From the NCBI GenBank assembly GCA_048617235.1, contig JBMCHT010000002.1, positions 63,899 to 127,898 of the forward strand: a stretch of DNA of 64,000 bases. The letters are read 5' to 3'. Numbering within the stretch: position 1 is the first letter of the stretch; every line of letters begins with the position of its first letter. Below, one piece after another: positions 4,752 through 46,851 of this stretch. The notes beneath the pieces were generated by a model. The model was not told the DNA's origin. It made no database searches and saw only the letters and a list, made by a program, of their open reading frames with translations. A program made the translations under genes and the position numbers. This DNA comes from Patescibacteria group bacterium. GTDB taxonomy: Bacteria > Patescibacteriota > Minisyncoccia > Phycocordibacterales > XYD1-FULL-46-19.

Positions 4752-4753
4752 AA

Positions 4754-6394: not shown

Positions 6395-6573
6395 TTTTGA
6401 GTAATCTTTTGATATGTTATTTTAACATTAAATCACATTTAGACTTATTTTTCCATCTTAAATTTATCTCTCCAACCCTAACATTTATTGAGAAATATAA
6501 GTAATAAGTTACCAACTCTATCCTCTCCGGACGCTCTAGACTCCCCCAACCTATTCTGTCATTCCTTAGAGAT

Positions 6574-7611: not shown

Positions 7612-7877
7612 ATGAACTAGATGTTAATGATGTGGCTGTACAGAAGAAGTTCCAAGCTGAATATACTAGAGCCAGTAGATTTCAAAAGAAGTTTTTAGGA
7701 AAAGAAAACAGTAAAGTGAAAGTGGATAATTTAGATATTAAAAGTTATATAAAACATGTGTTGATCGAAGGAACCGTTGAAGAAAAAAGAGAACTATTGG
7801 GAGAGATACAAAATAAATTAATTTTAAAAGAAAGAAAAATTATTTTGGAAAACATAAGTAACGACAGCGGCAATTAA
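7560..7877 (+). pseudogene. C-terminal coiled-coil segment of the same serine recombinase, in the -1 frame
   Basis: The 105-aa K/E-rich helical ORF overlaps the 3' end of the previous ORF in another frame. Together the two pieces are about 435 aa, typical of a large serine recombinase. Confidence 0.55.
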
Positions 7878-9803: not shown

Positions 9804-9808
9804 AATTA

Positions 9809-10831: not shown

Positions 10832-10838
10832 AGGCAGA

Positions 10839-11855
10839 TTATAACAAATTATTCTTTATAAATCTTTTTAATAAATCTATGGCTGCTGTGGCCTCAGTCG
10901 TTTCCATTAAAAGATTTCTTAATTCCACCGCTTTGGTAAAATCCGTCACATAAGCCTTAAAATGTTTTTTCATTACGGCATAATTTTTTTGATGACCTTG
11001 AAATTGTTGCTGATTAAATTCGCTTTGACCATAATAACGATCAAATAATTCCAAATGTTCAATCAAGATGGATAATCTGGTTTTTAAATCCGGATCCGGG
11101 CCAGTAAACAACCAAGGGCGACCATAAATTCCTCGGCCAATCATAATTCCATCTAAACCATAGGTTTGAGCTTTTGTTTTGGCCTCTGCCGGAGTTTTAA
11201 CATCTCCGTTACCTAAAAGAAGAATATCGGTACCGGAAAAAATATCTGCCAAAATTTGGGCTTCTTCCCACCGAGCCGGCACTTTGGACATTTCTTTTCT
11301 GGTCCGCAAATGAAAAGTAACTGCCGCCGGACAAGCAGCTATTAAGGCCTCCGGCCAGGCCGGCAATTCTAATTGATTGTAGCCCAAACGAGTTTTAACC
11401 GATATTGGAATACTATAACCGGCTTCAAGCACTCCTTCTTTAGCGGCTATAATTATTTCTTGAGCCAAAGTTGGATTTTTAATTAAAGCAGAACCGGCTT
11501 TTTGTTTTTCTACGGTTTTATCCGGACATCCCATATTAATATCTATCCCGGCCAAACCCCAACCGGCCACCAAAGAAGCAGCTTGTTTCATTTTAGTCGG
11601 ATTACTGCTAAATAATTGAGCCACTATCGGTTGTTCAATTTTCGTATAAAATAATTCTCTTTTTAATTTAGCTTGAGCCTCCGGATGAACCAAACCGTCA
11701 GCGGAAACAAATTCCGTAAAAAAAACGTCCGGCCCGGCCGGTTTGGAATATTTGGCAATTAATTGGCGAAAGACAGCATCCGTGACATCGGCCATGGGCG
11801 CCAAAGCAATTATCGGTCGCGGTAAATTTATCCAAAAATTAGCTTGATTCGACAT
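10839..11855 (-). CDS. dus: tRNA-dihydrouridine synthase
   Basis: ALAPMADVTD ... GIDINMGCP, the FMN-binding TIM-barrel Dus signature. Confidence 0.85.
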   Translation of the reverse strand: MSNQANFWINLPRPIIALAPMADVTDAVFRQLIAKYSKPAGPDVFFTEFVSADGLVHPEAQAKLKRELFYTKIEQPIVAQLFSSNPTKMKQAASLVAGWGLAGIDINMGCPDKTVEKQKAGSALIKNPTLAQEIIIAAKEGVLEAGYSIPISVKTRLGYNQLELPAWPEALIAACPAAVTFHLRTRKEMSKVPARWEEAQILADIFSGTDILLLGNGDVKTPAEAKTKAQTYGLDGIMIGRGIYGRPWLFTGPDPDLKTRLSILIEHLELFDRYYGQSEFNQQQFQGHQKNYAVMKKHFKAYVTDFTKAVELRNLLMETTEATAAIDLLKRFIKNNLL

Positions 11856-22002: not shown

Positions 22003-22121
22003 AATATTTATTATTATGAATCTATTTTAACATATTTTAATTAAGAACAAAAAACAATCGGCTAAAAACCAAATTTTGGTTCGCGTAATTTTTAATATTA
22101 ATTTCTTTTAGATTTAAATTG

Positions 22122-22203
22122 TGCCGGAGGAGGGACTTGAACCCTCACCTCTTGCGAGACACGATTTTGAGTCGTGCGCGTCTACCAATTCCGCCACTCC
22201 GGC
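22122..22203 (-). tRNA. tRNA-Leu (anticodon CAA), long variable arm
   Basis: Hand-folded: acceptor GCCGGAG/CTCCGGC, anticodon arm CACGA-CTCAAAA-TCGTG. Confidence 0.8.
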
Positions 22204-22284
22204 TATAAAAACTTATAATTAAGTATTTTTCAGTATAGAATCTTTAATAGTAAAAGTAAATAGTTTAAAATTGGTACCTATCCC

Positions 22285-22314
22285 TTGACAACAAGTAGTG
22301 TATTTTGGTAGTAT
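22285..22314 (+). promoter_or_regulatory. Sigma70-like promoter candidate upstream of the transposase (TTGACA, 18 nt, TAGTAT)
   Basis: A perfect -35 hexamer at 22285..22290 and a 4/6 -10 at 22309..22314, 29 nt upstream of the ATG. Confidence 0.25.
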
Positions 22315-22342
22315 GTATGTATAACAAGTTAATTATACCACT

Positions 22343-23146
22343 ATGAAATACACTATTAAAGATTTTAGAAAAGAGTTTCCCAATGATGATGTTTGTTTGG
22401 ACTACATCTTAAATAAGAAATATCCTGACTTAAAGGGCTATTACCGAGTAAAGGAGCGTAAATGTTATGCTAACTCTAAAGGTGGGCAAATTCACCCTGT
22501 TAAAGGCACTATTTTTGAGAAGTCTAGCACCCCTCTAACACTATGGTTTTACGCTATTTTCCTATTCTCTGTCTCTAAAAACGGAGTATCAGCTAAAGAG
22601 TTAGAGCGACAATTAGGTGTAACTTATAAATGTGCTTGGCGTATGGCTCACCAGATTAGAAAGCTAATGGATCAAGACGGTGATTTACTTATTGGTACAG
22701 TAGAAGTAGATGAGACTTATTTTGGTAAAAAAGGAAACCACGAGCAAAAGTTTAAAAACAAAACCGCTTTAATGGGTATGGTAGAGCGACAAGGTAAAGT
22801 TAGGGCTAATACTATTACCGCTCGTGAAGCTCATATCATCCTAAACCAGATTAAAGAAAATATCGGTCTAAACGCCAATATTATGTCTGATGAGTTTTCA
22901 ATTTATAAAAAGCTAAGTAAGTTAGGATATTCAAGTCAAAGAGTAAAACACGGAAAGAAAACCTATGTCCGAGGGAATGTTCACACCAATACTATTGAGG
23001 GCTTTTGGGGACAGTTAAAGCGAGGAATACGAGGGACTTATACTTTCGTATCAGCTACTCATTTACAGGCTTATGTGGACGGGTTTGCTTTTCGGTATAA
23101 TTATCGTCACGCTCCTGTTTTTGCGGAGTTGATTTCTCGTGTTTAA
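22343..23146 (+). mobile_element. IS1595-family (ISXO2-like) DDE transposase
   Basis: The C-terminal signature HTNTIEGFWGQLKRGIRGTYTFVSATHLQAYVDGFAFRYNYRH, the DDE region EVDETYFGKKG...MGMVERQGKV and an N-terminal Cys/His-poor zinc-ribbon-like segment. I could not resolve the terminal inverted repeats by eye. Confidence 0.8.
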
Positions 23147-23203
23147 TTGCTTTGTCTAAAAGTTTTTTAAACTTTGATTTTTGGTTGTTAGACTTATTAT
23201 TCA

Positions 23204-23422
23204 TTATATTTTTTCTAAGCCATCCTGAGAATAGGATTCTATATTACCATCAACATCACGAACGATTACAGCTATAGACTTAAAATCTTCACCGACATAT
23301 TGTGTTTCTCCTATATCCTCAACTATTTTTATCTCTGTTCTACTAATAAGAGAAAAAAGTAGTTTTTTCAAAAGCCCTCTTTTAGGACGTACTATTTCTC
23401 CTTTTTTAAATTTTTTTTCCAT
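23204..23422 (-). CDS. Hypothetical small soluble protein
   Basis: A 72-aa ORF that is the last gene of the minus-strand cassette. Confidence 0.4.
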   Translation of the reverse strand: MEKKFKKGEIVRPKRGLLKKLLFSLISRTEIKIVEDIGETQYVGEDFKSIAVIVRDVDGNIESYSQDGLEKI

Positions 23423-23442
23423 AATATTTAAATATAAACTAA

Positions 23443-23643
23443 TTACTTATTTTCAATTGCTCCAGTTATTAGACCCGCAATTACAGAAATTATAATTACA
23501 AAAACCCAACTAAAGGTTACGGCATCAATTACAAAAGTAATTGCCCATAAAATAAGAGCAATTAAGGGTATCCAAAATATAAGAGAAAATAAAGCGGATA
23601 TAAACATAATTATATATTTATTTTCTACTATTCCTCCAGCCAA
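23443..23643 (-). CDS. Hypothetical 2-TM small membrane protein
   Basis: 66 aa, strongly hydrophobic. It overlaps the upstream ORF by 26 nt. Confidence 0.4.
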   Translation of the reverse strand: MAGGIVENKYIIMFISALFSLIFWIPLIALILWAITFVIDAVTFSWVFVIIISVIAGLITGAIENK

Positions 23644-23815
23644 TAGTATAGAAAATTAGTAAAAACGGAAAAAATAACACAGCAAGAATGGACAGTAAAG
23701 CTAAGCCCGATGATTCTTGTTCAAGTGCCATAAAAAACGGAATTGTAGATACCAAGGTAGCCAAAACACCAAATACCCATAAAACTATAAGTTGTCCTTT
23801 TGAAATTTTATACAT
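23618..23815 (-). CDS. Hypothetical 2-TM small membrane protein
   Basis: 65 aa and hydrophobic. Confidence 0.4.
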   Translation of the reverse strand: MYKISKGQLIVLWVFGVLATLVSTIPFFMALEQESSGLALLSILAVLFFPFLLIFYTIGWRNSRK

Positions 23816-23837
23816 TATTTAAATCTTAACACTTTTA

Positions 23838-24353
23838 TTAACCAATTTCTATTCCTACTACTTTTAGTAAAAATAACCAAATAGCACCACTAGTTAATAC
23901 TGCAGTAATTATTGTAACGACCATATGGGTAAGTGAGGGAAAAACACCTGCTATATACTTCCACCAAAAGTATACAGGACTTAAGATTTCCTCACCTTTG
24001 TCGTAAGATACTTGTATTTTTCTTTGACTAGTATTTATATGATCTATATTTGATTCACAAAAATCTTCATTTTTATCAGCTAAAATAAAGTTATCTTCTA
24101 TGCAAGACTGAAGTACTCTTTTATAATCAGTTATAAAATCAATATCATCTTGATTTCTTTTATATCTTTGAAGTAAATAATTTAATAACTCATTTTCAAA
24201 TATGTAATGATCCCCTTCATTTATCATTATATAAACTTCTTTAAAAGTAGAATTACTGCTTTGTCTCATATGTTCGCTACTATTTTTCATTGACTCCTTA
24301 GAGACGCAATCTAAATCTTTTACAAGTTTTCTTTGTTTAAATAAGTTGGCCAT
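23838..24353 (-). CDS. Hypothetical protein with a C-terminal TM anchor
   Basis: 171 aa with a soluble N-terminal domain and a C-terminal TM (VTIITAVLTSGAIWLFLL). Confidence 0.5.
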   Translation of the reverse strand: MANLFKQRKLVKDLDCVSKESMKNSSEHMRQSSNSTFKEVYIMINEGDHYIFENELLNYLLQRYKRNQDDIDFITDYKRVLQSCIEDNFILADKNEDFCESNIDHINTSQRKIQVSYDKGEEILSPVYFWWKYIAGVFPSLTHMVVTIITAVLTSGAIWLFLLKVVGIEIG

Positions 24354-24404
24354 TCTCTTTATCCTACCAAATATCCCCTTACTTGTCGAGAGGGTATAAG
24401 TACC

Positions 24405-25190
24405 TTAAAATTGGTCTCTTTTTTCCTCACCAACATTTTTTACAAAATTTTCATTATACCAAGATAAAACATCATCTGAAGCTTGATTTAAAAAAGACCT
24501 AACTTCAGTTTGAACTGAAACATCAATTAAATTTTTATGAGAAAACAAATCTTGTGGTTTTTTTTCAAGACCTAAAACCTTACGAATTCGACTATTATAA
24601 ATATCCGGATCGCCTCCTAATCCATAAAAAATGTTTCCCCCAAAAACATTCTCTAATAATTTATCATCTGAAGAGGTAATTAAACTAACAGCAACAATAT
24701 CAAAAGAAATGCCTAAGGACTGCAAAGCTTGAGTTAAAGGCAATAAAGAACTACCCGTAGCTATTGTATCTGTAATTATTAATACCCGCCCATCATCACC
24801 TAAAACATAATCATCTTTTTTCTGCCTTAAAAAATCTTCAATTTCAATTTTCTTTATTTCTCCCCTTCTTTGTTTTTTAATATTTGTTATACCTAAACCA
24901 TCAGGCATTATTAAACCTCCTGAACCAGCTATAAAATGAGTTACCGGATCTTGATAACCTTGACGATTATAAATATCTTTTATAATTCGACGCAAAAACA
25001 TAGTTGGCAACCTACCGGAGATATCATCTCCTATCAACATTTTATATTGTCCTTTTTCTAGCCGTTCTCTAAATTTAGGCTTCTGTAGAATATTTTTAAA
25101 AGAGATGACCATTTCTTTGGCCACGCATTTCAAGGTTTCTTTTTTATTAGCAGATAAAGGTTTATTATCTAAATAAGAAAATTCTTTCAT
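24405..25190 (-). CDS. Phosphoribosyltransferase (type I PRTase)-fold protein of unknown specificity
   Basis: The PRPP-binding loop GRVLIITDTIATGSSLLPLTQALQSLGISFDIVAVSL matches the hhhhD[DT]xxxTG[GS][ST] pattern. It has no ComF-type N-terminal Cys ribbon and sits at about 25% GC. Confidence 0.6.
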   Translation of the reverse strand: MKEFSYLDNKPLSANKKETLKCVAKEMVISFKNILQKPKFRERLEKGQYKMLIGDDISGRLPTMFLRRIIKDIYNRQGYQDPVTHFIAGSGGLIMPDGLGITNIKKQRRGEIKKIEIEDFLRQKKDDYVLGDDGRVLIITDTIATGSSLLPLTQALQSLGISFDIVAVSLITSSDDKLLENVFGGNIFYGLGGDPDIYNSRIRKVLGLEKKPQDLFSHKNLIDVSVQTEVRSFLNQASDDVLSWYNENFVKNVGEEKRDQF

Positions 25191-28795: not shown

Positions 28796-28891
28796 AATAT
28801 ATTATAATTTAATCTTCAATAACCTTGTTACTATAACAGATTTTATAAAAAAAGCCAGGGCTTCTTTAAACCTATCTTCACCTCGTTTGGG

Positions 28892-28973
28892 TGGGCGAGA
28901 GAGGACTCGAACCTCCACGGATTACTCCACTAGTTCCTAAAACTAGCGCGTCTACCAATTCCGCCACTCGCCC
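28892..28973 (-). tRNA. tRNA-Leu (anticodon TAG)
   Basis: Hand-folded: acceptor GGGCGAG/CTCGCCC, anticodon arm CTAGT-TTTAGGA-ACTAG, and a long variable arm. Confidence 0.8.
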
Positions 28974-29112
28974 ATTTTTAGAATTTTATTCTAATACGAT
29001 TTAAATAATAAAACAACAAAAAAATCTCACTAAACCTCAGCCAGCTATTTTGGGTAAGTAGCTCCGACCACCAAAGCACAATTATTCTTTTGTCTGACTG
29101 AGATAAAATAGG

Positions 29113-36355: not shown

Positions 36356-36664
36356 ATGAATAATGATGCTTTTTCAAAAAGAAAAAAAAGACTGGAACAT
36401 ATTATTATTCATCGAACAGCTGAGTTCTTAAACAAAGAAGCCGGTCGTCGCAGTTTAATTACCGTAACCGCTTGTCATTTAAATGAAAATATAACTAAAG
36501 CAGTTATCTTCTTATCTGTTTACCCGGTTGAAGATTTGGGATCGGCTCTGGCTTTTGCCAGGCGTAAAGCCAGAGTTATAAACAATTATATCAAAGAAAC
36601 CGGAAATTTAGACAGGGTGCCAAAATTAGAAATTTTACCGACCGAAGATTCTTTAACAAAATAA
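36356..36664 (+). CDS. rbfA: Ribosome-binding factor A
   Basis: A KH-like RbfA pattern (RLEHIIIHRTAEFL...ITVTACHLNENITKAVIFLSV) immediately downstream of infB, as in the canonical operon. Confidence 0.7.
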   Translation: MNNDAFSKRKKRLEHIIIHRTAEFLNKEAGRRSLITVTACHLNENITKAVIFLSVYPVEDLGSALAFARRKARVINNYIKETGNLDRVPKLEILPTEDSLTK

Positions 36665-36669
36665 AAACC

Positions 36670-36744
36670 GGCACGGTGGTGAAGTGGTAACACAGCGGTC
36701 TGCAAAACCGCGATGCGCGGGTTCGATTCCCGCCCGTGCCTCCA
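36670..36744 (+). tRNA. tRNA-Cys (anticodon GCA), CCA encoded
   Basis: Hand-folded: acceptor GGCACGG/CCGTGCC, anticodon arm GCGGT-CTGCAAA-ACCGC. Confidence 0.85.
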
Positions 36745-36789
36745 AACACTTTCCGAATTTATTTTTTTTTGCTAAAGTATATATACCCT

Positions 36790-36871
36790 GCTCGGGTGGC
36801 GGAACTGGTATACGCGCACGACTTAAAATCGTGTGCCGCAAGGCGTGCGGGTTCGATTCCCGCCCCGAGCA
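36790..36871 (+). tRNA. tRNA-Leu (anticodon TAA)
   Basis: Hand-folded: acceptor GCTCGGG/CCCGAGC, anticodon arm CACGA-CTTAAAA-TCGTG, and a long variable arm. Confidence 0.8.
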
Positions 36872-36879
36872 CAAAAAAA

Positions 36880-36905
36880 TCGGCGCTTATTTAAGCGCCG
36901 AGGCA
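36880..36905 (-). terminator. Rho-independent terminator of the 90-aa ORF
   Basis: The minus strand reads cctcGGCGCTTaaatAAGCGCCgattttttt. Confidence 0.55.
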
Positions 36906-37159
36906 AACAGTCGGAAAACGAGGTAACCAAGCATCCCCGCCATCACGACCGTTATGAGTGATTCCAGCAACTCCGGTGCAAACCGGAGTAAGAACCAAAG
37001 AATTCCTAGTCCAACCAACCACGGAGTGGCCCATTGGATAAGAGTCCTCAGCCCCCGGCCAATTCCCGTCGCCACTTCCCGAATCAGGTCGGCTATCAAA
37101 CCGACCCAAAACAAACAAAAACCTCTTAAGATATTCATAGCTTTCTCCTTTCCCTGCAC
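36887..37159 (-). CDS. Small 2-TM membrane protein
   Basis: 90 aa at about 55% GC, followed by its own terminator. An alternative start MNILRG lies at 37138. Confidence 0.45.
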   Translation of the reverse strand: MQGKEKAMNILRGFCLFWVGLIADLIREVATGIGRGLRTLIQWATPWLVGLGILWFLLRFAPELLESLITVVMAGMLGYLVFRLFASALK

Positions 37160-37292
37160 TTTAAGTGCTTTGAATTCTTTTTACAGAAAAACATAGTTAT
37201 ATAAAATTGTCAAATAGTCTGGAATTGATCTTTCTTATCGGTTATAATTAACTAAAGGTCATTTATTTTATTAAATTTAAAATAATTATTTT

Positions 37293-37520
37293 ATGCCGAC
37301 ACTTTTTGCTATTGTTTTTTATCTTTTATTAATAGACAGTTTAGGAGCGGTTTTAGTAGCTTGGTTTGGTTGGGGAGATAATTGGTATTATAAAAATCTA
37401 CCTAGTTTTTCTCGCTTTTTTCCTTTATCCAAAGGTTGGGTTAGTTACTACTTAATCTGGTCCTTGTGGTTGGGAATTGTTTTGTGGTATTTTGAAGTCT
37501 TGCCGTGGCCGGGAATGTAA
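37293..37520 (+). CDS. Small Trp-rich membrane protein
   Basis: 75 aa with two hydrophobic segments, AT-rich. Confidence 0.35.
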   Translation: MPTLFAIVFYLLLIDSLGAVLVAWFGWGDNWYYKNLPSFSRFFPLSKGWVSYYLIWSLWLGIVLWYFEVLPWPGM

Positions 37521-37543
37521 TTTTAATTTAATAATAATTTTAA

Positions 37544-37616
37544 GCCCCGTTAGCTCAGTTGGTAGAGCAGTTGCCTCTTAAGCAAACGGTCGGGGGTTCA
37601 AATCCCTCACGGGGCA
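37544..37616 (+). tRNA. tRNA-Lys (anticodon CTT)
   Basis: Hand-folded: acceptor GCCCCGT/ACGGGGC, anticodon loop CTCTTAA, T-arm GGGGG-TTCAAAT-CCCTC. Confidence 0.75.
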
Positions 37617-37712
37617 CTTTTTTGTTTGACTTTTACCCAAAAAGTTGTATAATTATAAACAGAAACTGGTTGTCGAGCAATAACTGCTCGGCTTTGACAA
37701 AGGAGAAAAAAG

Positions 37713-38744
37713 ATGTGGGAAATTTTTGTGGGAATAATCTTGGCTATCATTCTGACTTCCCCTTTGGAGGTCTGGATTCTGGCTTCTTTCAATCTGGGCT
37801 TTACTTTCATTCGTGAGGGTGAGGCTCGGGCTGTCTTAGTTGGTGACTCATTCCATCGAATCATCATGGCCTACACTGGCCGGGTGATCCTTGAAACCCC
37901 GGTCATGGTGGCTCATTACAAACAAGCCACCGGCCACCAGGAAGCGGATTTGTGGGATATCGTCGAGGCAACAGACGATTTCCCAGAACCGGCTAAAAGC
38001 CGACTGGAGAAATGGTTCGGAATCCGGTGGTACGGCCTGCCACCGTTCCGAAAGATTTTGTCCTACTCCTTCAAGTGGACCGCTCCGGTCCATAATGAGG
38101 GTGAATCCAAAATGCGACCGAGCACAGAAACCCTGTCGCATATCTTCGTCAAAGAGACGTTGTATGCCGACAAGGTTCGGCAGGCGGAGACTTCGGAGGC
38201 ACTCCCAATGGATGTTGAGTACCGGGTTTTGCTTCGGGTCAAAAACCCTTACAAAGCCCTCTTCCAAGTCCATCGCTGGTTGGATGCCACCTTGGATGTG
38301 GTGGGATCAGCCATTAGGGAGTATATTAGTGGAAAAAAATATGAGGATCTCCTGGAGACCTCAGACAAAATTTTTTCAGAGGAAGTACTTAAAAATATCC
38401 CCGAAATCACCAACACCCGCTACGGGGTGGAGGTGCTGAATCTTCGTCTGACAGACATATCGCCGGCCTCAGCCCAAGCCGAAGAATACCGCTTGGCCTC
38501 GACCAAGAAATATGTCGAGGAGCGAGCCGGAGAGGCGGCAGAGGCTCGCGCTAAGGGTGAGTCCGAAGCCATCAAGTTGATGGGTGACGGTGAGGCCAAA
38601 GCCATCAAAGCTAAGGGCCAAGCTCAGGCTGAGGCCTGGCAGGCTCAAGTCAGCCAAGCCGGACCACCTTTGGCCGGTGCCCTCAACCAACTGGTTGAGG
38701 GAATCACCAAGGCAATAATCTCCGTCAGAAAGGGAGGAGAATAG
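37713..38744 (+). CDS. SPFH/band-7 (stomatin/HflK/C-like) membrane protein
   Basis: An N-terminal TM, an SPFH core (EYRVLLRVKNPYKALFQV...) and an Ala/Glu-rich C-terminal coiled coil (EAAEARAKGESEAIKLMGDGEAKAIKAKGQAQAEAW). GC is about 50–60%. Confidence 0.75.
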   Translation: MWEIFVGIILAIILTSPLEVWILASFNLGFTFIREGEARAVLVGDSFHRIIMAYTGRVILETPVMVAHYKQATGHQEADLWDIVEATDDFPEPAKSRLEKWFGIRWYGLPPFRKILSYSFKWTAPVHNEGESKMRPSTETLSHIFVKETLYADKVRQAETSEALPMDVEYRVLLRVKNPYKALFQVHRWLDATLDVVGSAIREYISGKKYEDLLETSDKIFSEEVLKNIPEITNTRYGVEVLNLRLTDISPASAQAEEYRLASTKKYVEERAGEAAEARAKGESEAIKLMGDGEAKAIKAKGQAQAEAWQAQVSQAGPPLAGALNQLVEGITKAIISVRKGGE

Positions 38745-38746
38745 TA

Positions 38747-39577
38747 ATGACTACGCTATTTCTTGTCTTGGGGTGGACAGCCATACTGCTCACTCTGGTT
38801 GGGGTGATTGCCATCAAAAATCGCCCTTCCACCTCCTCCAACCAAACGGAGGAGGTAGCAACCGAAACAACGAACAGTGGTAACTGGCTCGGGAGAGTCT
38901 ATCGCCACCCCGCAACTCCCTTCGTGGTAGCCGGGCTAGTCGGACTGGGGTTGTTTATCGGCTTCTGGCCCAGCGCCACTTGGCCGATAATCAAAACCGG
39001 TGCCTGGTGGCTAGCTTTGGCCACGGTTGGGTTTGTGGTCTTCGGCTATATCAACATCCCCACGGAAGCCGAGACCACCGCTTCTCGGAGGCGAGTGGCC
39101 GGGTGGTTCAGACGCTATGCAGTCTTAGCTGTTATCTTCGGCTTGTTATTCGGCTTGTGGTCCAACCACAGCCCGGTAACAGTTGAAGAGGCAGTGGAGG
39201 CTGTCGGCAACTGGTCACCGCCGACAATTTCTCTTTTTTCTTCCTCTCCTGAGAGAGGAAGAACAAGAGAAAACCGCCCCCCGGCACCTCCTCCACCACC
39301 ACCGGAGCCATTCCGAGTTGATCGGATAACGGCTCCAACCGTCGGCTGGTCCGAGAAAATCGAGTTCAACACTCGACCTTGGACCAGGAGGTTCCAACTG
39401 AAGGCCGAGGTGGCGGCGAAAGATGTACCAGTCTTGATTAAAGCCGGCGGGCGACTGATCAAGACAACCCTTAACAAGCGATCGGAGCAAAAAGAAGATA
39501 TTGGGAATGTTCCCCATCTTCAAATTCGCTCCGAGAGCGGCAGACCGTTAACGATATTGGTCAAACGATATCGTTAA
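38747..39577 (+). CDS. Polytopic membrane protein (4 TM), poly-Pro linker and C-terminal beta-rich domain; possibly an NfeD-like partner of the SPFH protein
   Basis: 276 aa starting 3 nt after the SPFH stop. Four hydrophobic helices, then PPAPPPPPPEP, then a roughly 90-aa soluble tail. Confidence 0.5.
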   Translation: MTTLFLVLGWTAILLTLVGVIAIKNRPSTSSNQTEEVATETTNSGNWLGRVYRHPATPFVVAGLVGLGLFIGFWPSATWPIIKTGAWWLALATVGFVVFGYINIPTEAETTASRRRVAGWFRRYAVLAVIFGLLFGLWSNHSPVTVEEAVEAVGNWSPPTISLFSSSPERGRTRENRPPAPPPPPPEPFRVDRITAPTVGWSEKIEFNTRPWTRRFQLKAEVAAKDVPVLIKAGGRLIKTTLNKRSEQKEDIGNVPHLQIRSESGRPLTILVKRYR

Positions 39578-39602
39578 CATAACATTTTCTCCTTTTTAAC
39601 CC

Positions 39603-39638
39603 AAAACCGCCACCTCCAGATTGGAGAGTGGCGGTTTT
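39603..39638. terminator. Bidirectional rho-independent terminator between the convergent SPFH operon and the pilin array
   Basis: The stem aaaaccgccac(ctcc...ggag)gtggcggtttt carries a T-run on the plus strand and an A-run upstream that serves the minus strand. Confidence 0.6.
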
Positions 39639-39656
39639 ATTTTTTATTTTCTCAAT

Positions 39657-39899
39657 TTAGGAACAACTAAATCCGAAAGTAGCACAAATAGACCACATAA
39701 TTCCAAAAGCACTCAAAGCTATAAACAAACCAATCAAGCCGTAAATTATATGTTGAGAACCGGTTTGTCTTTTTTCAGCATTATCTGACCCCCAGATAAA
39801 CAAAACCACTCCAAACACAAAATAAACCACTCCTACCGCTATCGCCAACATCATTAAGGGATTAATTATATTGGCAATTATGTTATCTATTATTTCCAT
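39657..39899 (-). CDS. VirB2/TrbC-like pilin-family small membrane protein (paralogue 7, shortest)
   Basis: The family core INPLMMLAIAVGVVYFVFGVVLFIWGSDNAEKRQTGSQHIIYGLIGLFIALSAFGIMW. Confidence 0.6.
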   Translation of the reverse strand: MEIIDNIIANIINPLMMLAIAVGVVYFVFGVVLFIWGSDNAEKRQTGSQHIIYGLIGLFIALSAFGIMWSICATFGFSCS

Positions 39900-39931
39900 T
39901 AATTAATCAGTTTTTGATTGAAATTAATTAA

Positions 39932-40309
39932 CTAGCTAGTCTCTTCACCAAAAGAAGGAAGCTCATCTGGGACTCCGGTCTCACCCCCTAGAGTTTCACT
40001 TAAAATGCCAACCAAACCCCAAGCGGCCACCATTACAAACAATACTACAATACCCATTATAATTATATTGATACCCGTACTTCTTTTTTCCGGATCTCCG
40101 GCAGCAGTTAAATAAGTAATTAACCCCCACAAGAAGACCAAGAAACCAAGACCAATTAAAATTGGAACCAAACTATTGACCCAACCCAAGATAGCGCTGA
40201 ACAAACTATCTACATCCGTTATATCACTACCGCCACCATCTTGAGCTAAAGCCACATTGCCTACCAATAAAGCAACTGAAAATAAAGCAACTTTTATTTT
40301 ATTCTTCAT
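39932..40309 (-). CDS. VirB2/TrbC-like pilin-family protein (paralogue 6)
   Basis: A signal peptide ending ...ALAQD, a Gly-rich segment, then the core LVPILIGLGFLVFLWGLITYLTAAGDPEKRSTG...IMGIVVLFVMVAAWGLV. Confidence 0.6.
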   Translation of the reverse strand: MKNKIKVALFSVALLVGNVALAQDGGGSDITDVDSLFSAILGWVNSLVPILIGLGFLVFLWGLITYLTAAGDPEKRSTGINIIIMGIVVLFVMVAAWGLVGILSETLGGETGVPDELPSFGEETS

Positions 40310-40434
40310 ATAATTTTTATTAATTATAAACTTATAATTTTATTAAAGGTTTTTAATAATTAAAACCTATTATTTGGTAATTATAACAATTACCAAATAA
40401 TAAAACAATAATTAATCTTCATACTGTTAATAAC

Positions 40435-40839
40435 TTACATAACCTCACCACCTGACTGGGGAATGGGAACATCGCCCCCACTTAAATTAAAAGTGGTTAT
40501 TAAAACATTAACCAACCCCCAAACAGATAACATCACAAATAAACCAACCAAACCGTAGATTATCATCTGAGAGCCCTTAGACATTTCTTCAGCGTTGCCT
40601 CCGGCTTTAACATACTTGACTACTCCAAACATAAAAACCACTACTGCTATTGCTATAGCTAAAGAAACTAAAGGATTTAAAATATCCGGAATAATCACCC
40701 CTTCTATAAGTTCTTTTAACGACTGACCACCTCCACCTGCAGGATCCTGAGCTTTAGCCGAAGTAGCCAATACCCCAAACACCAAAACCACTGGGATTAT
40801 TGCCATTAATCTAACCGTTATATTTCTTAAAACTATCAT
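40435..40839 (-). CDS. VirB2/TrbC-like pilin-family protein (paralogue 5)
   Basis: A signal peptide ending ...AKAQD, a GGGG segment, then the core NPLVSLAIAIAVVVFMFGVVKYVKAGGNAEEMSKGSQMIIYGLVGLFVMLSVWGLV. Confidence 0.6.
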   Translation of the reverse strand: MIVLRNITVRLMAIIPVVLVFGVLATSAKAQDPAGGGGQSLKELIEGVIIPDILNPLVSLAIAIAVVVFMFGVVKYVKAGGNAEEMSKGSQMIIYGLVGLFVMLSVWGLVNVLITTFNLSGGDVPIPQSGGEVM

Positions 40840-40862
40840 AAATATTGATGTTTACTTTTTAA

Positions 40863-41321
40863 TCATTGTTGTGAACCACCGCTGACATCAGGGGGAGAAA
40901 TAGCAGGGCTACCAAGATTAAAAGTGGTTTCTAAAACTTTCACAAATCCCCAAACAGATAACATTACAAACAAAACCACAATACCATAGACCATCAACCT
41001 GCCACCTTCGCTTACTTTTTCATCATTCCCGCCGGCGGAGACATATTTAACCAAACCCCACAAAAAGATCACGAACCCAACCGCTACCAAAAGAATTACT
41101 AAAGGATTTAAAATTCCATCAATTAAAGTATCCACTAAGTCGGAAAAGCCTGTACCACCACCGGTATCCCAATCAGTTGGATAAGCTCCACCCCCAGCTT
41201 CACCTTCACCTTCACCCTGAGCCAAAACTGAAACCGGATTCCAAATTAAAAAAGATAAAGAAACAATAAACAAAAATACCTTAGTCCAAGTTGGGGATTT
41301 TTTTATATTTTGCATATTCAA
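40863..41321 (-). CDS. VirB2/TrbC-like pilin-family protein (paralogue 4)
   Basis: A signal peptide, a Gly/Glu-rich segment, then the core NPLVILLVAVGFVIFLWGLVKYVSAGGNDEKVSEGGRLMVYGIVVLFVMLSVWGFV. Confidence 0.6.
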   Translation of the reverse strand: MNMQNIKKSPTWTKVFLFIVSLSFLIWNPVSVLAQGEGEGEAGGGAYPTDWDTGGGTGFSDLVDTLIDGILNPLVILLVAVGFVIFLWGLVKYVSAGGNDEKVSEGGRLMVYGIVVLFVMLSVWGFVKVLETTFNLGSPAISPPDVSGGSQQ

Positions 41322-41347
41322 GATATTTATTATTAATATTTATTTCT

Positions 41348-41644
41348 TTAGTATAGAGTTTGTGTTCCCCCGGTTGAACGAGGAATATCAACTTCCTCTG
41401 GAGTGAATCCAAAAGTGGTTTCCAATATCTTCACAAATCCCCAAGCAGATACCATCACAAACAAAACCACAATCCCATAAACCATTAATTTCCCTCCCTC
41501 GGCCAGTTTTTCATCATTCCCGCCGGCGGAGACATATTTAAGCAAACCCCACAAAAAAACTACAAAAGCTAAAGCGACCAATAAAATAATTAAAGGATTT
41601 AAAACACGCTCAATTAAAAACAAAATAAGACCATAAATATCCAT
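41348..41644 (-). CDS. VirB2/TrbC-like pilin-family protein (paralogue 3, lacks an N-terminal signal region)
   Basis: Its core is nearly identical to paralogue 4 (NPLIILLVALAFVVFLWGLLKYVSAGGNDEKLAEGGKLMVYGIVVLFVMVSAWGFV). Confidence 0.55.
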   Translation of the reverse strand: MDIYGLILFLIERVLNPLIILLVALAFVVFLWGLLKYVSAGGNDEKLAEGGKLMVYGIVVLFVMVSAWGFVKILETTFGFTPEEVDIPRSTGGTQTLY

Positions 41645-41688
41645 AAAAATATAATAATTAACTTAATAATGAATAATCATACCACTTT

Positions 41689-42072
41689 TTATAATGTATC
41701 AACAGTGGCTTGAATTAAATTAATAATAGCAAAAGCACCCAAAACCACCCCTGCTCCGGCTAAAGTCCAGATTATAGCGGTCTTGGCTTTGGTTATTTTT
41801 TCTTGATTACCTTGAGCCATTACTAACATCACTCCGGATATTATAATAAACAAAGCCACTACCGGAGCACCTAAGGTTACCACTCCTTCTAAAACCGCTT
41901 CTATTAATTCTACCAAACTCTCCGCAGTTAAAGGATTATTTATCCGGACACTACTGCCACCTTCCACCGCTCTCACTTTAAAAACAGGAATCAGGATTAA
42001 TAATATTGATAAACAGTAACCTTTAAGTATATTTTTTATAGTTGTTTTCTTCATATAATTATTATATACCAA
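41689..42072 (-). CDS. Divergent member of the same small 2-helix membrane protein family (paralogue 2)
   Basis: A signal/TM, then VVALFIIISGVMLVMAQGNQEKITKAKTAIIWTLAGAGVVLGAFAII, the same helix-loop-helix layout. Confidence 0.45.
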   Translation of the reverse strand: MVYNNYMKKTTIKNILKGYCLSILLILIPVFKVRAVEGGSSVRINNPLTAESLVELIEAVLEGVVTLGAPVVALFIIISGVMLVMAQGNQEKITKAKTAIIWTLAGAGVVLGAFAIINLIQATVDTL

Positions 42073-42081
42073 AAAAATAAA

Positions 42082-42471
42082 TTAACCGAATATATCTAAA
42101 ACAGAATTACCCTCTTCCACTAAAAGAGTAACTATAAATTTAACAATCAACCAAGCGGCTAAAGAAATAAACAAACCGGTCAAAGCGGTTTTAATTATAT
42201 TCTTACCCTTATCAATATAAGCAGGATTGGCAGCATTAATAGCCCACATAATTCCACCTATAACTATAGCCAAAGTAGCTACCGGGATAGCAATATAAGT
42301 AGTTAAAAAAGAAACAATATTATCTGCTAAAGTAAATAAATCATTAAAAGTGCAATTTACCCCCTCACAAGGAATTAATTCTCCACTCTCTTGACCTTTG
42401 GTAACAGAAGGCCAAAAAAGAAGAAGTCCAACCGGAATAGTATAAAAAGATTCTTTAATTTTATTAAACAT
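42082..42471 (-). CDS. Divergent member of the same family (paralogue 1), Cys-containing
   Basis: The ORF track runs to 42531, but an internal Met start at 42471 (MFNKIKESF...) removes the 56-nt overlap with the upstream gene. The core reads IAIPVATLAIVIGGIMWAINAANPAYIDKGKNIIKTALTGLFISLAAWLIV. Confidence 0.45.
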   Translation of the reverse strand: MFNKIKESFYTIPVGLLLFWPSVTKGQESGELIPCEGVNCTFNDLFTLADNIVSFLTTYIAIPVATLAIVIGGIMWAINAANPAYIDKGKNIIKTALTGLFISLAAWLIVKFIVTLLVEEGNSVLDIFG

Positions 42472-42475
42472 AATT

Positions 42476-43774
42476 TTAATCAAAAAGATTACTAATTTGA
42501 CGCCTGGCTGTTTCCAAGGCTGCTTCCGCACTCTGACCTCCAGCTGCCACTGTTTCTATCATATTCTGGAAAACACCATTTGTGGTATGAGGATCGGGAT
42601 CTAACCAAGTTCTGGCCAGTAAAGCCGACCGATAAAAAACAGACATAAAAGGATTAGAATGGCCTTGACCTAATCTGGATCGACCGGCACTCGGTAGTCC
42701 TATAGCTTCTTCCCATAAATTACTATAACGATCAGAGGCTAAAATACCAGCAGCCTTAAAAGCGGCTTGCGGATTAACCGAATTAAGATTAACCGCCACT
42801 GCATAAAAACGACCGGCAGTGGCCTTGATCGTAGCCGAACTGTTTTGAGGGAAAAAGTGTACATCCATATTTAAATTGGGATTACCACGACGCAGAGAAT
42901 CCAATTCTGAAGCAAAACCAAAATAATTAGCTAAATTACCGGACAAAAACATCTGTTTATCGTTAGGTAAAGTCCTATTCCAAGAATATTCAAATCTGTT
43001 AGTGTTGGCAAAACGAGAATAAAACTCTAAAGCGGCTCGACCTCGACTATCGGCTTCTCTATTAGTTGACCCGGTAACCAATCTATCTCCCACTTGTAAT
43101 AAAAGAGAAACTACTACATCTTTAGCGTTGGTAATATTACTATATTGCCCCATAGCCACAGCGCTTTGCTTTACCGTTAATCTATCCTCTATTATATTTA
43201 ATCTTTTTAAAACAGACTCAGCTCCGGCCGGACCGTCTATCAATTCCACCCAAGTGGCCGGCGGACCGGCCACTCCCGACTGATTATATATATCTCGATT
43301 ATAAAACATAACCAAAGGATCAACTAGTAAAGGTCGAGCTAGGGATCCTTCCTCGGTTAAAAAAATATCAAAACCATCTGCATAAGTGGTTCTAAAATCT
43401 CGTTCAGAAAAACTGGAATAAGGCAGAATCCAAAAAGTATCTCGGTACCGCCCCAACCAAGTGTCATTAATAATAATTAGATCCGGCCCTCGGCCTTGAA
43501 TTCTCTCTCTGACATAATCTTGTTCTAACTTAGACCCGGTTTTACCAACATAATTAATTTTAACCAGATTATCATTTTGGCTATTAATTACGTGAATCAA
43601 TTCGCTAACTTGAGAAGAAGGCCATGGTCCCCAAACAGTTACACTACCCATAAATTCTGTATCGGCACTTCTACCAATAGGAATCCAACCGGCGAAAACA
43701 GCCACTGCAAAAAGTAGAACACAAGCAAAAAAAACCAAAACTCCAATTTGAAAAGAATTATATTGATCTCCCAT
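42476..43774 (-). CDS. Membrane-anchored extracellular solute-binding-protein-like protein (SBP_bac_1-like)
   Basis: 432 aa with an N-terminal TM anchor, then VTVWGPWPSS...KINYVGKTG...GRGPDLIIINDTW resembling family-1 SBPs. No ABC permease or ATPase genes are adjacent. Confidence 0.4.
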   Translation of the reverse strand: MGDQYNSFQIGVLVFFACVLLFAVAVFAGWIPIGRSADTEFMGSVTVWGPWPSSQVSELIHVINSQNDNLVKINYVGKTGSKLEQDYVRERIQGRGPDLIIINDTWLGRYRDTFWILPYSSFSERDFRTTYADGFDIFLTEEGSLARPLLVDPLVMFYNRDIYNQSGVAGPPATWVELIDGPAGAESVLKRLNIIEDRLTVKQSAVAMGQYSNITNAKDVVVSLLLQVGDRLVTGSTNREADSRGRAALEFYSRFANTNRFEYSWNRTLPNDKQMFLSGNLANYFGFASELDSLRRGNPNLNMDVHFFPQNSSATIKATAGRFYAVAVNLNSVNPQAAFKAAGILASDRYSNLWEEAIGLPSAGRSRLGQGHSNPFMSVFYRSALLARTWLDPDPHTTNGVFQNMIETVAAGGQSAEAALETARRQISNLFD

Positions 43775-43779
43775 AACAA

Positions 43780-44313
43780 TTATTCCGGCTTAGTGCCTAA
43801 TAACCCATAATGATGAGCCCCGGCCATAAAATCTCGATCCAATTCAAACCCGGCTTCAGTCATAATCTCTTCAGCTTTTATTTTATTAACCACTTGTTGT
43901 GATACAGGACCTAGGCCACCAAAAGAATCTTGCCAATCTATTATTAAAATTTTACCGCCGGGTGCTAAAACTCGAAAAGCCTCTCTCATTAAAATATATT
44001 TAGATTCACTTTGAAATAAAACATTAGCCAAAACCACTGCCGTCACCGAAGCCTCAGCCAAACCGGAACCATTGGGTTTATCTAAATTTCCTCTAATTAC
44101 CTCAATATTGGTTAAACCCGACTCCCTAGACTCAGCTTTTAATTTATCTAAAATATCTTTTTGAACATCTACGGCATAAACTCTACCCTCCGACCCAACA
44201 GCCTCAGCTAAAGCCAAAGAATAAGCCCCAACACCACAACCAAAATCCGCCACTTTTTGACCGGAGGTCAAATGTAATTCAGATACATTATTCTGGGGTT
44301 GAGCAAAATCCAT
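43780..44313 (-). CDS. Class I SAM-dependent methyltransferase
   Basis: Motif I VADFGCGVGAYSL and the post-I acidic residue. Confidence 0.7.
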   Translation of the reverse strand: MDFAQPQNNVSELHLTSGQKVADFGCGVGAYSLALAEAVGSEGRVYAVDVQKDILDKLKAESRESGLTNIEVIRGNLDKPNGSGLAEASVTAVVLANVLFQSESKYILMREAFRVLAPGGKILIIDWQDSFGGLGPVSQQVVNKIKAEEIMTEAGFELDRDFMAGAHHYGLLGTKPE

Positions 44314-44373
44314 TACTTTTATTATACCAAAGTAATAACTACAAGGGCAAACTTTAAAGAGGGATAAAAAATA

Positions 44374-46851
44374 TTAGAGAAAAGTTACCGAAGCTAGCTG
44401 ATCTTTGATTTTTAATTTCATTAAGCGCACTCCTTGAGTTTGTCGTCCTTGAACCGGAACTTGATCCAAGCCGACTCTTATTACTTGACCCAAACGAGAA
44501 ATGGCGATTAACTCACTATAGTCTTCCGTTAAAGCTCTAACGGCGATTAAATGGCCGGTTTTATCGGTGGTTTTAAAAGTCTTAATTCCGCCTCCGCCAC
44601 GTTTTTGTATTTTATATTCAACTACTTCGGTCATTTTACCATAACCGGATTGACTGACGGTTATAAAACGAACCGATTCATTTTTTTCCACTCGATCAGC
44701 TCCAACCACATAATCATCTTTACTTAATTTAATACCTCGAACACCGGCAGCCGTTCTACCCATTGATCGTAAATCGGATTCTTTAAACCTTATAGATTGA
44801 CCGGCGATGGTGGCTAAAATAATAGAATCACCTTTTCCAACCAAACGAACCGATAATAATTCATCTTTATCTCCCAAATGAATGGCAATTAAACCACTAC
44901 GACGAACATCTTTAAAATTATCCGCCTGAACCTTTTTAACCACTCCGAATTTGGTCACCATTACCAAAGCCAACTGATTCCATTTGGTATCTTTATCCAA
45001 ACTTAAAACCGAAGTCACTTTTTCATCAGCCTCCAAAGCTAAATAATTAACTATCGACTTACCTCGAGTGGCTCTTTTGCATTCCGGTAAATCATACATT
45101 TTCATTTGATAAACCTTACCTTTATCGGTAAAGAATAATAAATCACTATGTGTATTGGCAGTTAAAAATATTCTAACAAAATCTTCTTCTTTAACATTAA
45201 GATCTATTACTCCGGTGCCTCCCCTTTTTTGTTGTCGAAATTCACTCGGATCAGTTCTTTTTATATAACCACCTTCTGTTAGAACCAAGACATTATCTTT
45301 TTCCGGAACCAAATCTTCGGGATTAATGGTTTTAACTCCACCGGGAATAACTTTGGTTCGGCGGTCATCACCATATTTATCTATCGCCTCTTGTAATTCA
45401 TCTTTAATAATGGTGGTTATTTTTTGAGGACTGGCTAAAATAGCTTTTAATTCTTTAATTAATTGTTGTTTTTCTTTCAATTCTTCTTCTATTTTTTTTC
45501 TTTCCAAACCGGCCAATTTTTGTAATCTCATTTCCAAAATGGCAGTGGCTTGTAAATCGGATAACTTAAATTCTTGCTGTAATCGCTTATGTGCCTCAGC
45601 CGTATCTTTGGATTTTTTAATGGTTTTTATAATGGCATCTATATGATCTAAAGCTTTCTTTAAACCAAGTAAAATATGTTCCCGAGCTTCAGCTTTTTTT
45701 AAATCAAATCGTGTCCGATTAACCACCACTTCCCGACGATGTAGTAAAAATTCTTCCAAAATAACCTTTAGAGGCATTAATTTCGGCACTCCACCTGACA
45801 AAGCCAACATATTATAATGAAAAGTGGTTTCCAAATCCGTATGCTTATAGATGACATTGAGCATTTTTTGCGGTTGAGCTCCATTTTTTAAATCTATAAC
45901 CACTCGAATATCTTTAGTTGATTCATCTCTAATATCTCTAATTCCGTCTATTTTTTTATTTCTAACCAAATCAGCCATTTTTATAATCATATCCGCCTTA
46001 TTAACCTGATAAGGTATAGAGGAAATAATTATCTGATGTCCGCCGGTTTTGGTTTCTATTATCTCGGCCTCTCCCCGAACAGTCACTCCACCTCGACCGG
46101 TAGAATACGCGTGAACTAAATCTTTTTTATTAAACACCAAACCTCCGGTCGGAAAATCCGGACCGGTTATATATTTAGTTAAATCCTCAGCCGCTAAATC
46201 CGGATTATCTGCTAAAACTTTTAAAGCTTCAGCTACTTCTGTTAAATTATGAGGGGGGATTTTAGTAGCCATGCCAACCGCTATACCAAAAGTACCATTT
46301 AATAATAAATTGGGAATAGCTGCCGGTAAAACCGTCGGTTCTTTTAATTCTCCGGAATAATTATCTGCATATTCTACCGTTTCTTTTTCTATATCTTTTA
46401 ACATTTCCGAAGCTAAGCGAGACATTTTAGCTTCAGTATAACGAAAAGCAGCCGCTGAATCTCCATCTATGGAACCAAAGTTACCTTGACCGGCAACCAA
46501 GGGATATCGAGCTGAAAAATCTTGTGCCATTTTTACCATAGCATCATAAACCGAGGAATCACCATGAGGATGGTATTTACCCAAAACATCACCAACCACT
46601 ACTGCCGATTTTTTAAATTTAGACCCGCCATGCAAACCTAAACCGTGCATAGTATATAAAATTCGCCGATGTACCGGCTTTAAACCATCCCTTACATCAG
46701 GCAAAGCTCGAGAGACAATAACAGACATGGAGTAATCCAAGTAAGCATCTTGCATCTCCTTAACAATACCGGCCGGTATCACTTGCCAGCCAACCGGTTT
46801 TTCGGGAATATTTGATTTATTTTTATCCGATTTGTTATTTTTACCAGACAT
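44374..46851 (-). CDS. gyrA: DNA gyrase subunit A
   Basis: The active-site Tyr region ([11 protein letters not shown]), a QRDR-like segment ([10 protein letters not shown]) and C-terminal beta-pinwheel repeats. Confidence 0.95.

Follow-up and report, generated by a model that had tools for sequence, protein, structure and literature searches.

A GC-rich SPFH operon at a conserved, syntenic locus in Patescibacteria

The operon described here lies in a 64,000-nt stretch of a Patescibacteria contig (JBMCHT010000002.1, positions 63,899 to 127,898 of the forward strand, assembly GCA_048617235.1), referred to below as the window. It follows a cluster of tRNA genes, and consists of a gene for a protein of the SPFH (Band_7) family and one for a putative membrane protein, here called the partner. 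Beyond it are a terminator, a convergent array of small pilin-like genes, and genes for an SBP_bac_1-like protein (SBP below), a methyltransferase, and GyrA. The pair is richer in GC than its surroundings, and the original prediction, made from the sequence alone, was of a foreign segment at a tRNA gene, recently transferred from a higher-GC donor. Comparison with related genomes leads elsewhere. Because the same arrangement is found in at least 14 lineages, the block is an ancestral, syntenic, Patescibacteria-wide operon of SPFH gene plus variable membrane partner, and not a tRNA insertion; and because the pair exceeds its neighbors in GC content at third codon positions (GC3) in most lineages, GC-richness is a recurring property of the cassette, and not a one-off import.

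Twenty-five related loci (designated by L numbers) were collected from genome, metagenome, and Logan assemblies (NCBI, JGI, ENA, Logan), and 14 lineages, treated as independent, have enough flanking sequence to be judged. An SPFH gene and partner are found at the same place in all judgeable loci (L001, L004–L010, L019, and L022–L025; 14 lineages overall), with GyrA identities of 49–88% among the syntenic lineages. The common layout is the SPFH gene, a transmembrane (TM) partner directly after it, a convergent array of T4SS_pilin (PF18895) genes, the SBP, a methyltransferase of 176–180 aa, and GyrA; exceptions are L010, without the methyltransferase, and L019, in which extra open reading frames (ORFs) separate the partner from the pilin genes. 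Where the upstream side is visible, it includes IF-2, RbfA, and a tRNA-Cys/Leu(taa)/Lys(ctt)/Leu(tag) cluster, which lies upstream of the SPFH gene in L005–L007 and L024. Identities of the window SBP, methyltransferase, and GyrA are 33, 48, and 67% to those of L001, and 33, 53, and 70–71% to those of L023. No empty site was found in relatives: homologs occupy it in 14 of the 14 lineages with enough flank. An identical block at the same locus in relatives had been named in the original prediction as a sign against import; what is found is largely that, a homologous pair at the same place in all 14 judgeable lineages.

Within the window, the compositional contrast is sharp. In 400-nt steps, GC content is 0.46–0.57 at 37600–39600 and 0.50 at 36600–37200, compared to 0.30–0.41 in the usual flanking windows; the tRNA genes at 36670–36872 account for part of the first peak. 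None of the remaining 1-kb bins of the 64 kb exceeds 0.42. By codon position (GC1/2/3), values are 0.58/0.41/0.59 for the SPFH gene, 0.53/0.52/0.59 for the partner, and 0.56/0.41/0.57 for ORF90, a small ORF in the first GC-rich patch, against a window mean of 0.46/0.35/0.29 (0.47/0.35/0.28 without these three outliers). Every other window ORF of at least 90 aa has a GC3 of 0.34 or less, including those for FtsZ (0.33), SOD (0.29), ClpB (0.26), S1 (0.25), and IF-2 (0.27). The SPFH and partner coding sequences (CDSs) are GC3-rich over their full length (0.37–0.77 in 30-codon windows, with dips at 38298 and 39197–39242), and the non-coding pieces around and between the GC-rich ORFs are AT-rich (GC 0.00–0.37). 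C-ending and G-ending codons are both raised in the block relative to the window (TTC 0.72 vs. 0.15, ATC 0.52 vs. 0.14, GAG 0.67 vs. 0.21, CTG 0.28 vs. 0.04). The predicted GC jump is thus confirmed by windowed GC, codon-position GC, and codon usage; composition is not uniform on proper computation, and host-atypical composition, as would be expected of an island, is present (GC3 0.57–0.59 vs. 0.28).

Three simple causes of this excess were considered and set aside. Codon supply from the adjacent tRNA-Lys(CTT) and tRNA-Leu genes was dropped, since the shift affects all C- and G-ending codons and not particular ones, and amino acid composition as the only cause was dropped, since GC3 itself has moved by +0.30. 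An apparent sign of translational selection in the C-ending codons was withdrawn: the C/G split at third positions tracks strand skew, and all the top C/(C+T) genes are on the + strand.

The excess is not confined to the window (Table 1). Expressed as an offset from local genes, SPFH GC3 is positive in 11 of the 14 lineages (mean +0.10; Wilcoxon p 0.003–0.007), and partner GC3 in 13 of the 14 (mean +0.14; p 0.0002). Recomputation from pooled codons gave the same result for GC3, with much smaller offsets for GC1 and GC2. In 8 of 11 lineages measured, total GC of the cassette is 0.53–0.54 (0.58, 0.49, and 0.38 in the other three), although locus GC spans 0.37–0.52 and host GC 0.37–0.53, and most of the 14 have a cassette GC3 of about 0.55–0.68. 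Ahead of the SPFH gene, a stretch of 100 nt is intergenic-like in every locus. The nearest GyrA relative of the window, L023 (70–71%), has the same extreme offset (+0.30, +0.20), though its SPFH protein is only 34% identical. An ancient import merely slow to drift toward host GC is ruled out by this comparison, because synonymous sites are saturated at that divergence. Something keeps, or repeatedly makes, the cassette GC-rich; it is conspicuous in the window because the genome is AT-rich. With the pair GC3-rich in most lineages, and the window SPFH about as diverged from its relatives as GyrA predicts, the proposal of a recent transfer from a higher-GC donor is not supported.

Table 1. GC3 of SPFH and partner genes relative to local genes in 14 lineages
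Lineage	SPFH offset	Partner offset
Window	+0.30	+0.30
L023	+0.30	+0.20
L007	+0.23	+0.24
L008	+0.16	+0.13
L004	+0.10	+0.27
L001	+0.10	+0.14
L009	+0.10	+0.08
L010	+0.09	+0.10
L024	+0.08	+0.15
L022	+0.05	+0.11
L025	+0.03	+0.09
L005	0	+0.07
L006	-0.03	+0.03
L019	-0.08	-0.01

Individual T4SS_pilin paralogs in neighboring arrays are also GC3-rich relative to their hosts (L005 13400–13723, GC3 0.64; L008 3501–3920, 0.60), a hint that occasional outliers in composition are to be expected anywhere in this variable region of membrane-protein genes.

The SPFH assignment, as predicted, rests on a match of residues 124–283 to Pfam Band_7 (PF01145) at 46.6 bits, well above the cut-off of 23.6 (E 5.2e-12). 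A family profile built with eight homologs matches several solved structures: PH1511 stomatin (3bk6, 1.8e-17), QmcA (8z5g, 2.8e-10), HflK (2.4e-7), and human stomatin. From its sequence, the protein is predicted to consist of an N-terminal TM anchor, an SPFH domain, and a C-terminal helix rich in Ala and Glu. Residues 4–26 form a hydrophobic stretch that keeps its position in the eight homologs, and a local BLASTP alignment to Escherichia coli QmcA (23% identity over 143 aa) spans the SPFH domain and the Ala/Glu-rich helix. Identity as an HflK/HflC equivalog was rejected: scores are far under the cut-offs (TIGR01933, 28.1 bits vs. 159.4; TIGR01932, 12.1 bits vs. 134.4), and there are no paired K/C paralogs, the window containing one SPFH gene only. 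In L019, a second SPFH paralog follows the partner gene (9742–10695). The family has 939 representatives at E ≤1e-3 and 504 at E ≤1e-10 (50%-identity clusters). Its homologs are few and remote: the best non-self match among some 15 billion proteins is 39% identical, from a Paceibacterota metagenome-assembled genome (MAG). A word-indexed homolog search gave three matches for the SPFH protein (itself and two others), the partner itself only for the partner, and P0005 only for the partner-family profile. The search for a donor by protein comparison, proposed with the original prediction, made no donor visible, the best match being 39% identical.

In the predicted partner, four TM helices are joined by a disordered poly-Pro linker to a C-terminal domain of some 85 aa that is all beta, much as the original prediction described it. 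The AlphaFold2 (AF2) models on which this layout partly depends were made from one or two sequences and are of low confidence (pLDDT 58.7 and 64.6). They give the C-terminal domain seven or eight strands, with generic jelly-roll or sandwich folds as structural neighbors, which may set it apart from the five-stranded oligonucleotide/oligosaccharide-binding (OB) fold of NfeD (2EXD, 2K14, PH1510-C). In predicted layout the partner is like NfeD, with four TM helices, a linker, a beta domain, and a start 2 nt after the SPFH stop; at 276 aa the protein is longer than an NfeD (about 145), and its linker is Pro-rich. It has no family match in Pfam and no sequence match in the PDB. An NfeD identity was not detectable by any of the approaches tried: neither the window partner nor ten homologs, scanned individually, match Pfam NfeD (PF01957) at E ≤1, and profile comparison of the partner family with E. 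coli YbbJ (hhalign) gave a probability of 0.3%. Partners of different lineages can barely be aligned (11–21% identity), with only a weak common motif, PxGxWSE...PxG...W, and by this sequence comparison the partner appears to be evolving very fast between lineages.

Known SPFH operons offer useful points of reference. One with a similar plan is E. coli qmcA-ybbJ, where the first gene likewise encodes an SPFH protein, anchored in the membrane at its N-terminus and with a C-terminal helix rich in Ala and Glu, and is translationally coupled to a gene for a small polytopic partner ending in a soluble all-beta domain. The order SPFH gene, then partner, called reversed in the original prediction by comparison with nfeD-stomatin pairs, is thus also that of qmcA and ybbJ. 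YbbJ is a short NfeD, whereas the window partner lacks an NfeD signature, may have seven or eight strands in a jelly-roll or sandwich instead of the five of the NfeD OB-fold, includes long Pro/Thr-rich low-complexity segments, and varies strongly between lineages. Among solved structures, the SPFH profile finds its best match in PH1511 of Pyrococcus horikoshii (see above), whose operon with PH1510 (STOPP/NfeD) likewise pairs an SPFH protein with a membrane partner ending in a beta domain (PMC4208085). PH1510, however, is first in its operon, and has a ClpP-like serine protease domain and an OB-fold end, none of which is seen in the window. HflK and HflC share the SPFH fold, with weak matches (NCBIfam HflK, 28 bits; HflK structures, 2.4e-7), but beyond the low scores, the window lacks the paired SPFH paralog expected of them, and ftsH is not adjacent.

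By analogy with these systems, the SPFH protein would be anchored by its single N-terminal helix and oligomerize through the Ala/Glu-rich C-terminal helix, as expected of the SPFH family, into a membrane-attached ring or cage that may organize a microdomain. The translationally coupled partner, with its TM helices, flexible Pro/Thr-rich segment, and putative beta-sandwich, could then be a client or adaptor of the SPFH protein, in the role that NfeD proteins have in other SPFH operons, though it is not detectably an NfeD. The operon would thus be a functional analogue of SPFH-NfeD pairs, a membrane scaffold plus a membrane-anchored beta-domain partner; as an analogy, this appears robust.

The features between tRNA-Cys and GyrA are collected in Table 2. 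The cluster of three tRNAs and the strong bidirectional terminator closing the block were both anticipated in the original prediction; the gene content it described, an SPFH gene followed by a polytopic partner, also stands, but the spacing is 2 nt and not 3. Transfer RNAs are the only Rfam matches. The candidate promoter is the best match in the region scanned, and is followed by a ribosome-binding site, AAAGGAG. The terminator serves both the SPFH operon (+) and the convergent pilin array (-), and the adjacency of operon and array, with this shared terminator in the window, is kept across the phylum; a functional link between an SPFH scaffold and the pilin system is possible on the strength of this gene order.

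Table 2. Features of the window from tRNA-Cys to GyrA
Feature	Coordinates	Strand	Evidence and remarks
tRNA-Cys(GCA)	36670..36744	+	ARAGORN; Rfam tRNA, 68 bits; first of the conserved upstream tRNA cluster
tRNA-Leu(TAA)	36790..36872	+	ARAGORN, Rfam
Predicted intrinsic terminator of ORF90	36880..36901	-	9-bp stem, then T-run
ORF90, GC-rich small membrane-protein ORF, lineage-specific	36887..37159	-	GC1/2/3 0.56/0.41/0.57
ORF75, hydrophobic small ORF of uncertain status	37293..37520	+	Host-like, AT-rich (GC 0.36); parts the two GC-rich patches
tRNA-Lys(CTT)	37544..37617	+	ARAGORN, Rfam
Sigma-70-like promoter TTGACT-16-TATAAT, candidate for SPFH operon	37626..37653	+	Consensus match only, 11/12 positions
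SPFH/Band-7 protein, 343 aa, stomatin/QmcA-like	37713..38744	+	Pfam Band_7, E 5e-12; GC3 0.59
Partner, putative membrane protein, 276 aa	38747..39577	+	AF2 models; GC3 0.59; no family match
Bidirectional intrinsic terminator	39603..39638	.	16-bp stem, A-run upstream, T-run downstream; dG -26 kcal/mol, z -5.4
Array of seven T4SS_pilin (PF18895)/TrbC-like small membrane-protein genes	39657..42531	-	Pfam; host-like GC
SBP_bac_1-like protein, class-I methyltransferase, GyrA	42476..46851	-	Pfam; conserved anchor at the right-hand end of the block

Public NCBI gene calls for the pair are shorter at the N-terminus (SPFH, 279 vs. 343 aa; partner, 208 vs. 276 aa). The long forms given here are supported, because the N-terminal region (the SPFH TM anchor) is conserved in homologs, Shine-Dalgarno sites are present, and high GC3 continues through the extra sequence. 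For ORF90, the true start is probably the ATG at 37138, with the Shine-Dalgarno sequence GGAAAGGAG ahead of it. Neither ORF90 nor ORF75 has a family match in Pfam, PHROG, PADLOC, or NCBIfam scans, or a homolog in any of the related loci collected.

The window departs from the common layout upstream of the operon: its tRNA-Leu(tag) is at 28888–28974, and ORF90 and ORF75 fill the spacer between tRNA-Leu and tRNA-Lys. In L001, L005–L008, L024, and L025, tRNA-Leu(tag) is directly upstream of the SPFH gene, whereas in the window it is some 9 kb off and on the opposite (-) strand, a displacement that indicates local rearrangement of the tRNA cluster. In L010, an ORF of 183 aa for a Xer-like tyrosine recombinase (32–583; it may extend past the start of the locus) is directly upstream of tRNA-Leu and the SPFH gene.

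How the cassette has been inherited can be approached through pairwise identities. Those of GyrA and SBP are closely correlated (Spearman 0.85), those of GyrA and SPFH much less so (0.38), and lineage pairs with GyrA about 78% identical have SPFH proteins that are anywhere from 29–34% (L008/L025) to 62–65% (L005/L009) identical. Two loci from Hainich groundwater, L006 and L010, have SPFH genes (9974–11029 and 823–1848) with products 58–60% identical, against 57% for GyrA and 26% for SBP, which indicates a clear case of lateral exchange, of the SPFH gene alone, because no similarity is seen between the partners. Hinderhofer et al. (2009; PMC2636767) have argued that SPFH/NfeD operons undergo frequent lateral transfer, and found GC3 deviations in just one of the genes tested.

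From this pattern, the cause proposed here is that the operon is a fast-evolving, recombination-prone, exchangeable cassette at a fixed locus: repeated recombination or replacement within the Patescibacteria, its outcome biased toward GC, would keep the composition of the cassette distinct from that of the host. We put the chances of this explanation at about even. Such recurrent exchange would be more likely than one recent import from an unrelated donor or an island targeted to a tRNA gene. A loose parallel is provided by O-antigen and capsule loci, where atypical composition is kept at a conserved site between conserved flanking genes; the cassette resembles these in its fixed position, conserved flanks, divergent content, and persistently host-atypical composition. 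They are, however, usually poorer in GC than the host and code for pathways of sugar biosynthesis, and allele swapping has been demonstrated in them, whereas the SPFH cassette is GC-richer, has only two genes, and shows evidence of swapping for one pair only (L006/L010).

Several observations weigh against the recurrent-exchange explanation. The window SPFH protein is 30–38% identical to those of lineages with GyrA identities of 66–70%, as vertical descent predicts, and the GC-rich cassettes are about as diverged from each other as their hosts are (SPFH 17–40% identical), so that there is no sign of a donor pool recently shared. Vertical descent, together with a force that persists, would fit most of the pattern. 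Low-GC cassettes are found in four lineages (L005, L006, L019, and L024), and are host-like in the first three. GC-biased gene conversion should raise non-coding GC too, yet the sequence just ahead of the SPFH gene (100 nt) is intergenic-like in all loci, and the pilin genes, which are equally fast-evolving, are mostly not GC-rich. ORF90, an unrelated orphan, matches the operon in composition but is set apart from it by an AT-rich stretch, and fits plain foreign DNA better. Finally, the lineages are not strictly independent, and the backgrounds used for comparison are local (10–20 kb), not genome-wide.

A bolder reading, tentative and rather doubtful, is that of a position-locked module of two genes, for an SPFH scaffold and, on a Pro/Thr-rich stalk, a fast-evolving beta-sandwich protein, whose composition has a phylum-wide set-point of around 53% GC (GC3 around 0.6) against 37–53% for the genomes themselves, despite complete sequence turnover. 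Alternatively, with strictly vertical inheritance, synonymous GC might be kept high by gene-specific selection on mRNA or translation, for instance because the genes are highly expressed, because their mRNA has to be stable, or because AU-rich signals for cleavage or termination are avoided. The excess is indeed strongest at third positions and bounded by the CDSs, with promoter, untranslated, and intergenic pieces host-like; it affects both genes of one transcription unit, where the promoter-like site is near consensus and the Shine-Dalgarno sequences are strong, and it recurs in deeply diverged lineages with SPFH divergence roughly scaling with that of GyrA. However, FtsZ, SOD, ClpB, S1, and IF-2, all presumably well expressed, have a GC3 of no more than 0.34, an offset of +0.30 is far above usual codon-adaptation effects, and GC1 and GC2 are shifted too in the window. 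Selection of this kind would also leave ORF90, the L006/L010 exchange, and the four low-GC cassettes unaccounted for, and the split between C- and G-ending codons, confounded by strand skew, is unusable as evidence for it; we consider it somewhat unlikely. Orthologous replacement confined to this lineage, in which Patescibacteria DNA of about 53–54% GC was recently swapped in with the tRNA genes as homology anchors, and ORF90 was inserted separately or as part of a mosaic, would explain why the SPFH gene and ORF90 have GC1/2/3 values as expected of a genome of about 54% GC, on the basis of the Muto-Osawa and Lawrence-Ochman relations, without any sign of partial drift at third positions. The enrichment of both C- and G-ending codons, the position of orphan ORF90 directly beside tRNA-Leu, the lateral SPFH exchange seen elsewhere in the phylum (L006/L010), and the frequent lateral transfer argued for by Hinderhofer et al. 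(2009) point the same way. Such a replacement at the locus in this lineage is nevertheless unlikely: the protein search cited above made no donor visible, the window SPFH is as distant from those of its GyrA neighbors as vertical descent predicts, and host-like AT-rich DNA lies between the two GC-rich patches. The same excess in most lineages, including the nearest, L023, would require many independent imports, always from GC-richer donors, and background GC3 is 0.49 or less in all sampled members of the clade.

A tRNA-targeted mobile island, or an anti-phage defense module built on an SPFH/NfeD pair (the original prediction mentioned defense-island contexts for such pairs), could account for the adjoining tRNA genes and the atypical composition, and perhaps for a weak PHROG match (phrog_200, annotated "lipoprotein," E 6e-8). 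The remaining evidence makes it very improbable. None of ORF90, ORF75, SPFH, and partner, the only ORFs at 36873–39640, matches an integrase or recombinase, or has a match in PADLOC-DB, and no integrase or recombinase gene adjoins the block; no relative of the block was found in GenBank phages (tblastn) or viral contigs. No att repeat of the tRNA-Lys 3' end was found near 39600, in agreement with the inspection by eye that accompanied the original prediction, the only tRNA-related repeats being the T-arms of the three tRNAs. The same site is occupied across the phylum, and its neighbors (IF-2, RbfA, tRNAs, pilin array, SBP, methyltransferase, GyrA) are housekeeping in character, not a defense context. 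An assembly chimera, with stretches of a GC-richer co-occurring relative joined at shared tRNA k-mers, is suggested by the start of the first GC-rich patch 15 nt past tRNA-Leu and of the second about 100 nt past tRNA-Lys, but host-like composition resumes at 37160 and 39580, sites without conserved sequence, synteny is intact on both sides, and the pattern is the same in independent NCBI, JGI, ENA, and Logan assemblies; we regard this as the least credible of the explanations considered. That the block is not an island, not a defense system, and not an artefact is a robust conclusion.

Elsewhere in the window, a more convincing mobile-island candidate than the SPFH block is found at 2472–8768, where genes for a restriction helicase like those of Type III systems (ResIII, 759 aa), a DNA methylase of the N6/N4 kind (546 aa), and a serine recombinase of the large type (345 aa) lie together. 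Next come an orphan ORF, very AT-rich (GC3 0.16), and tRNA-Gln. At 22121–25190, an IS1595/ISXO2-family transposase gene (22343–23146) adjoins tRNA-Leu(caa), and is followed by two AT-rich orphan ORFs (GC3 0.18).

For genome scans, the locus is a caution: GC and tRNA criteria alone would misclassify the block as a horizontal transfer, because a +0.30 GC3 island beside tRNA genes here sits at an ancestral syntenic locus and recurs across the phylum. The Patescibacteria belong to the Candidate Phyla Radiation (CPR), and no paper on SPFH proteins in CPR bacteria or Patescibacteria was found in the literature searched. What is new is a Patescibacteria SPFH operon, with at least 500 clusters (50% identity, E ≤1e-10), in which a fast-evolving membrane partner with a predicted beta-sandwich replaces NfeD, and which is always beside the T4SS-pilin-like arrays typical of these bacteria. 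If the cassette is indeed held at a GC set-point, there would be "GC islands without import," arising from a locus-specific and lasting GC-favoring process, conceivably selection acting directly on the GC of coding sequence, or biased gene conversion at a recombination hotspot by the conserved tRNA genes. The locus could then serve to separate biased gene conversion, GC selection, and recurrent exchange in small, AT-drifting genomes. The rapid divergence of the partner, in that case, would suggest a surface determinant on which diversifying selection acts, perhaps through the interactions of these episymbionts with host cells or phages.

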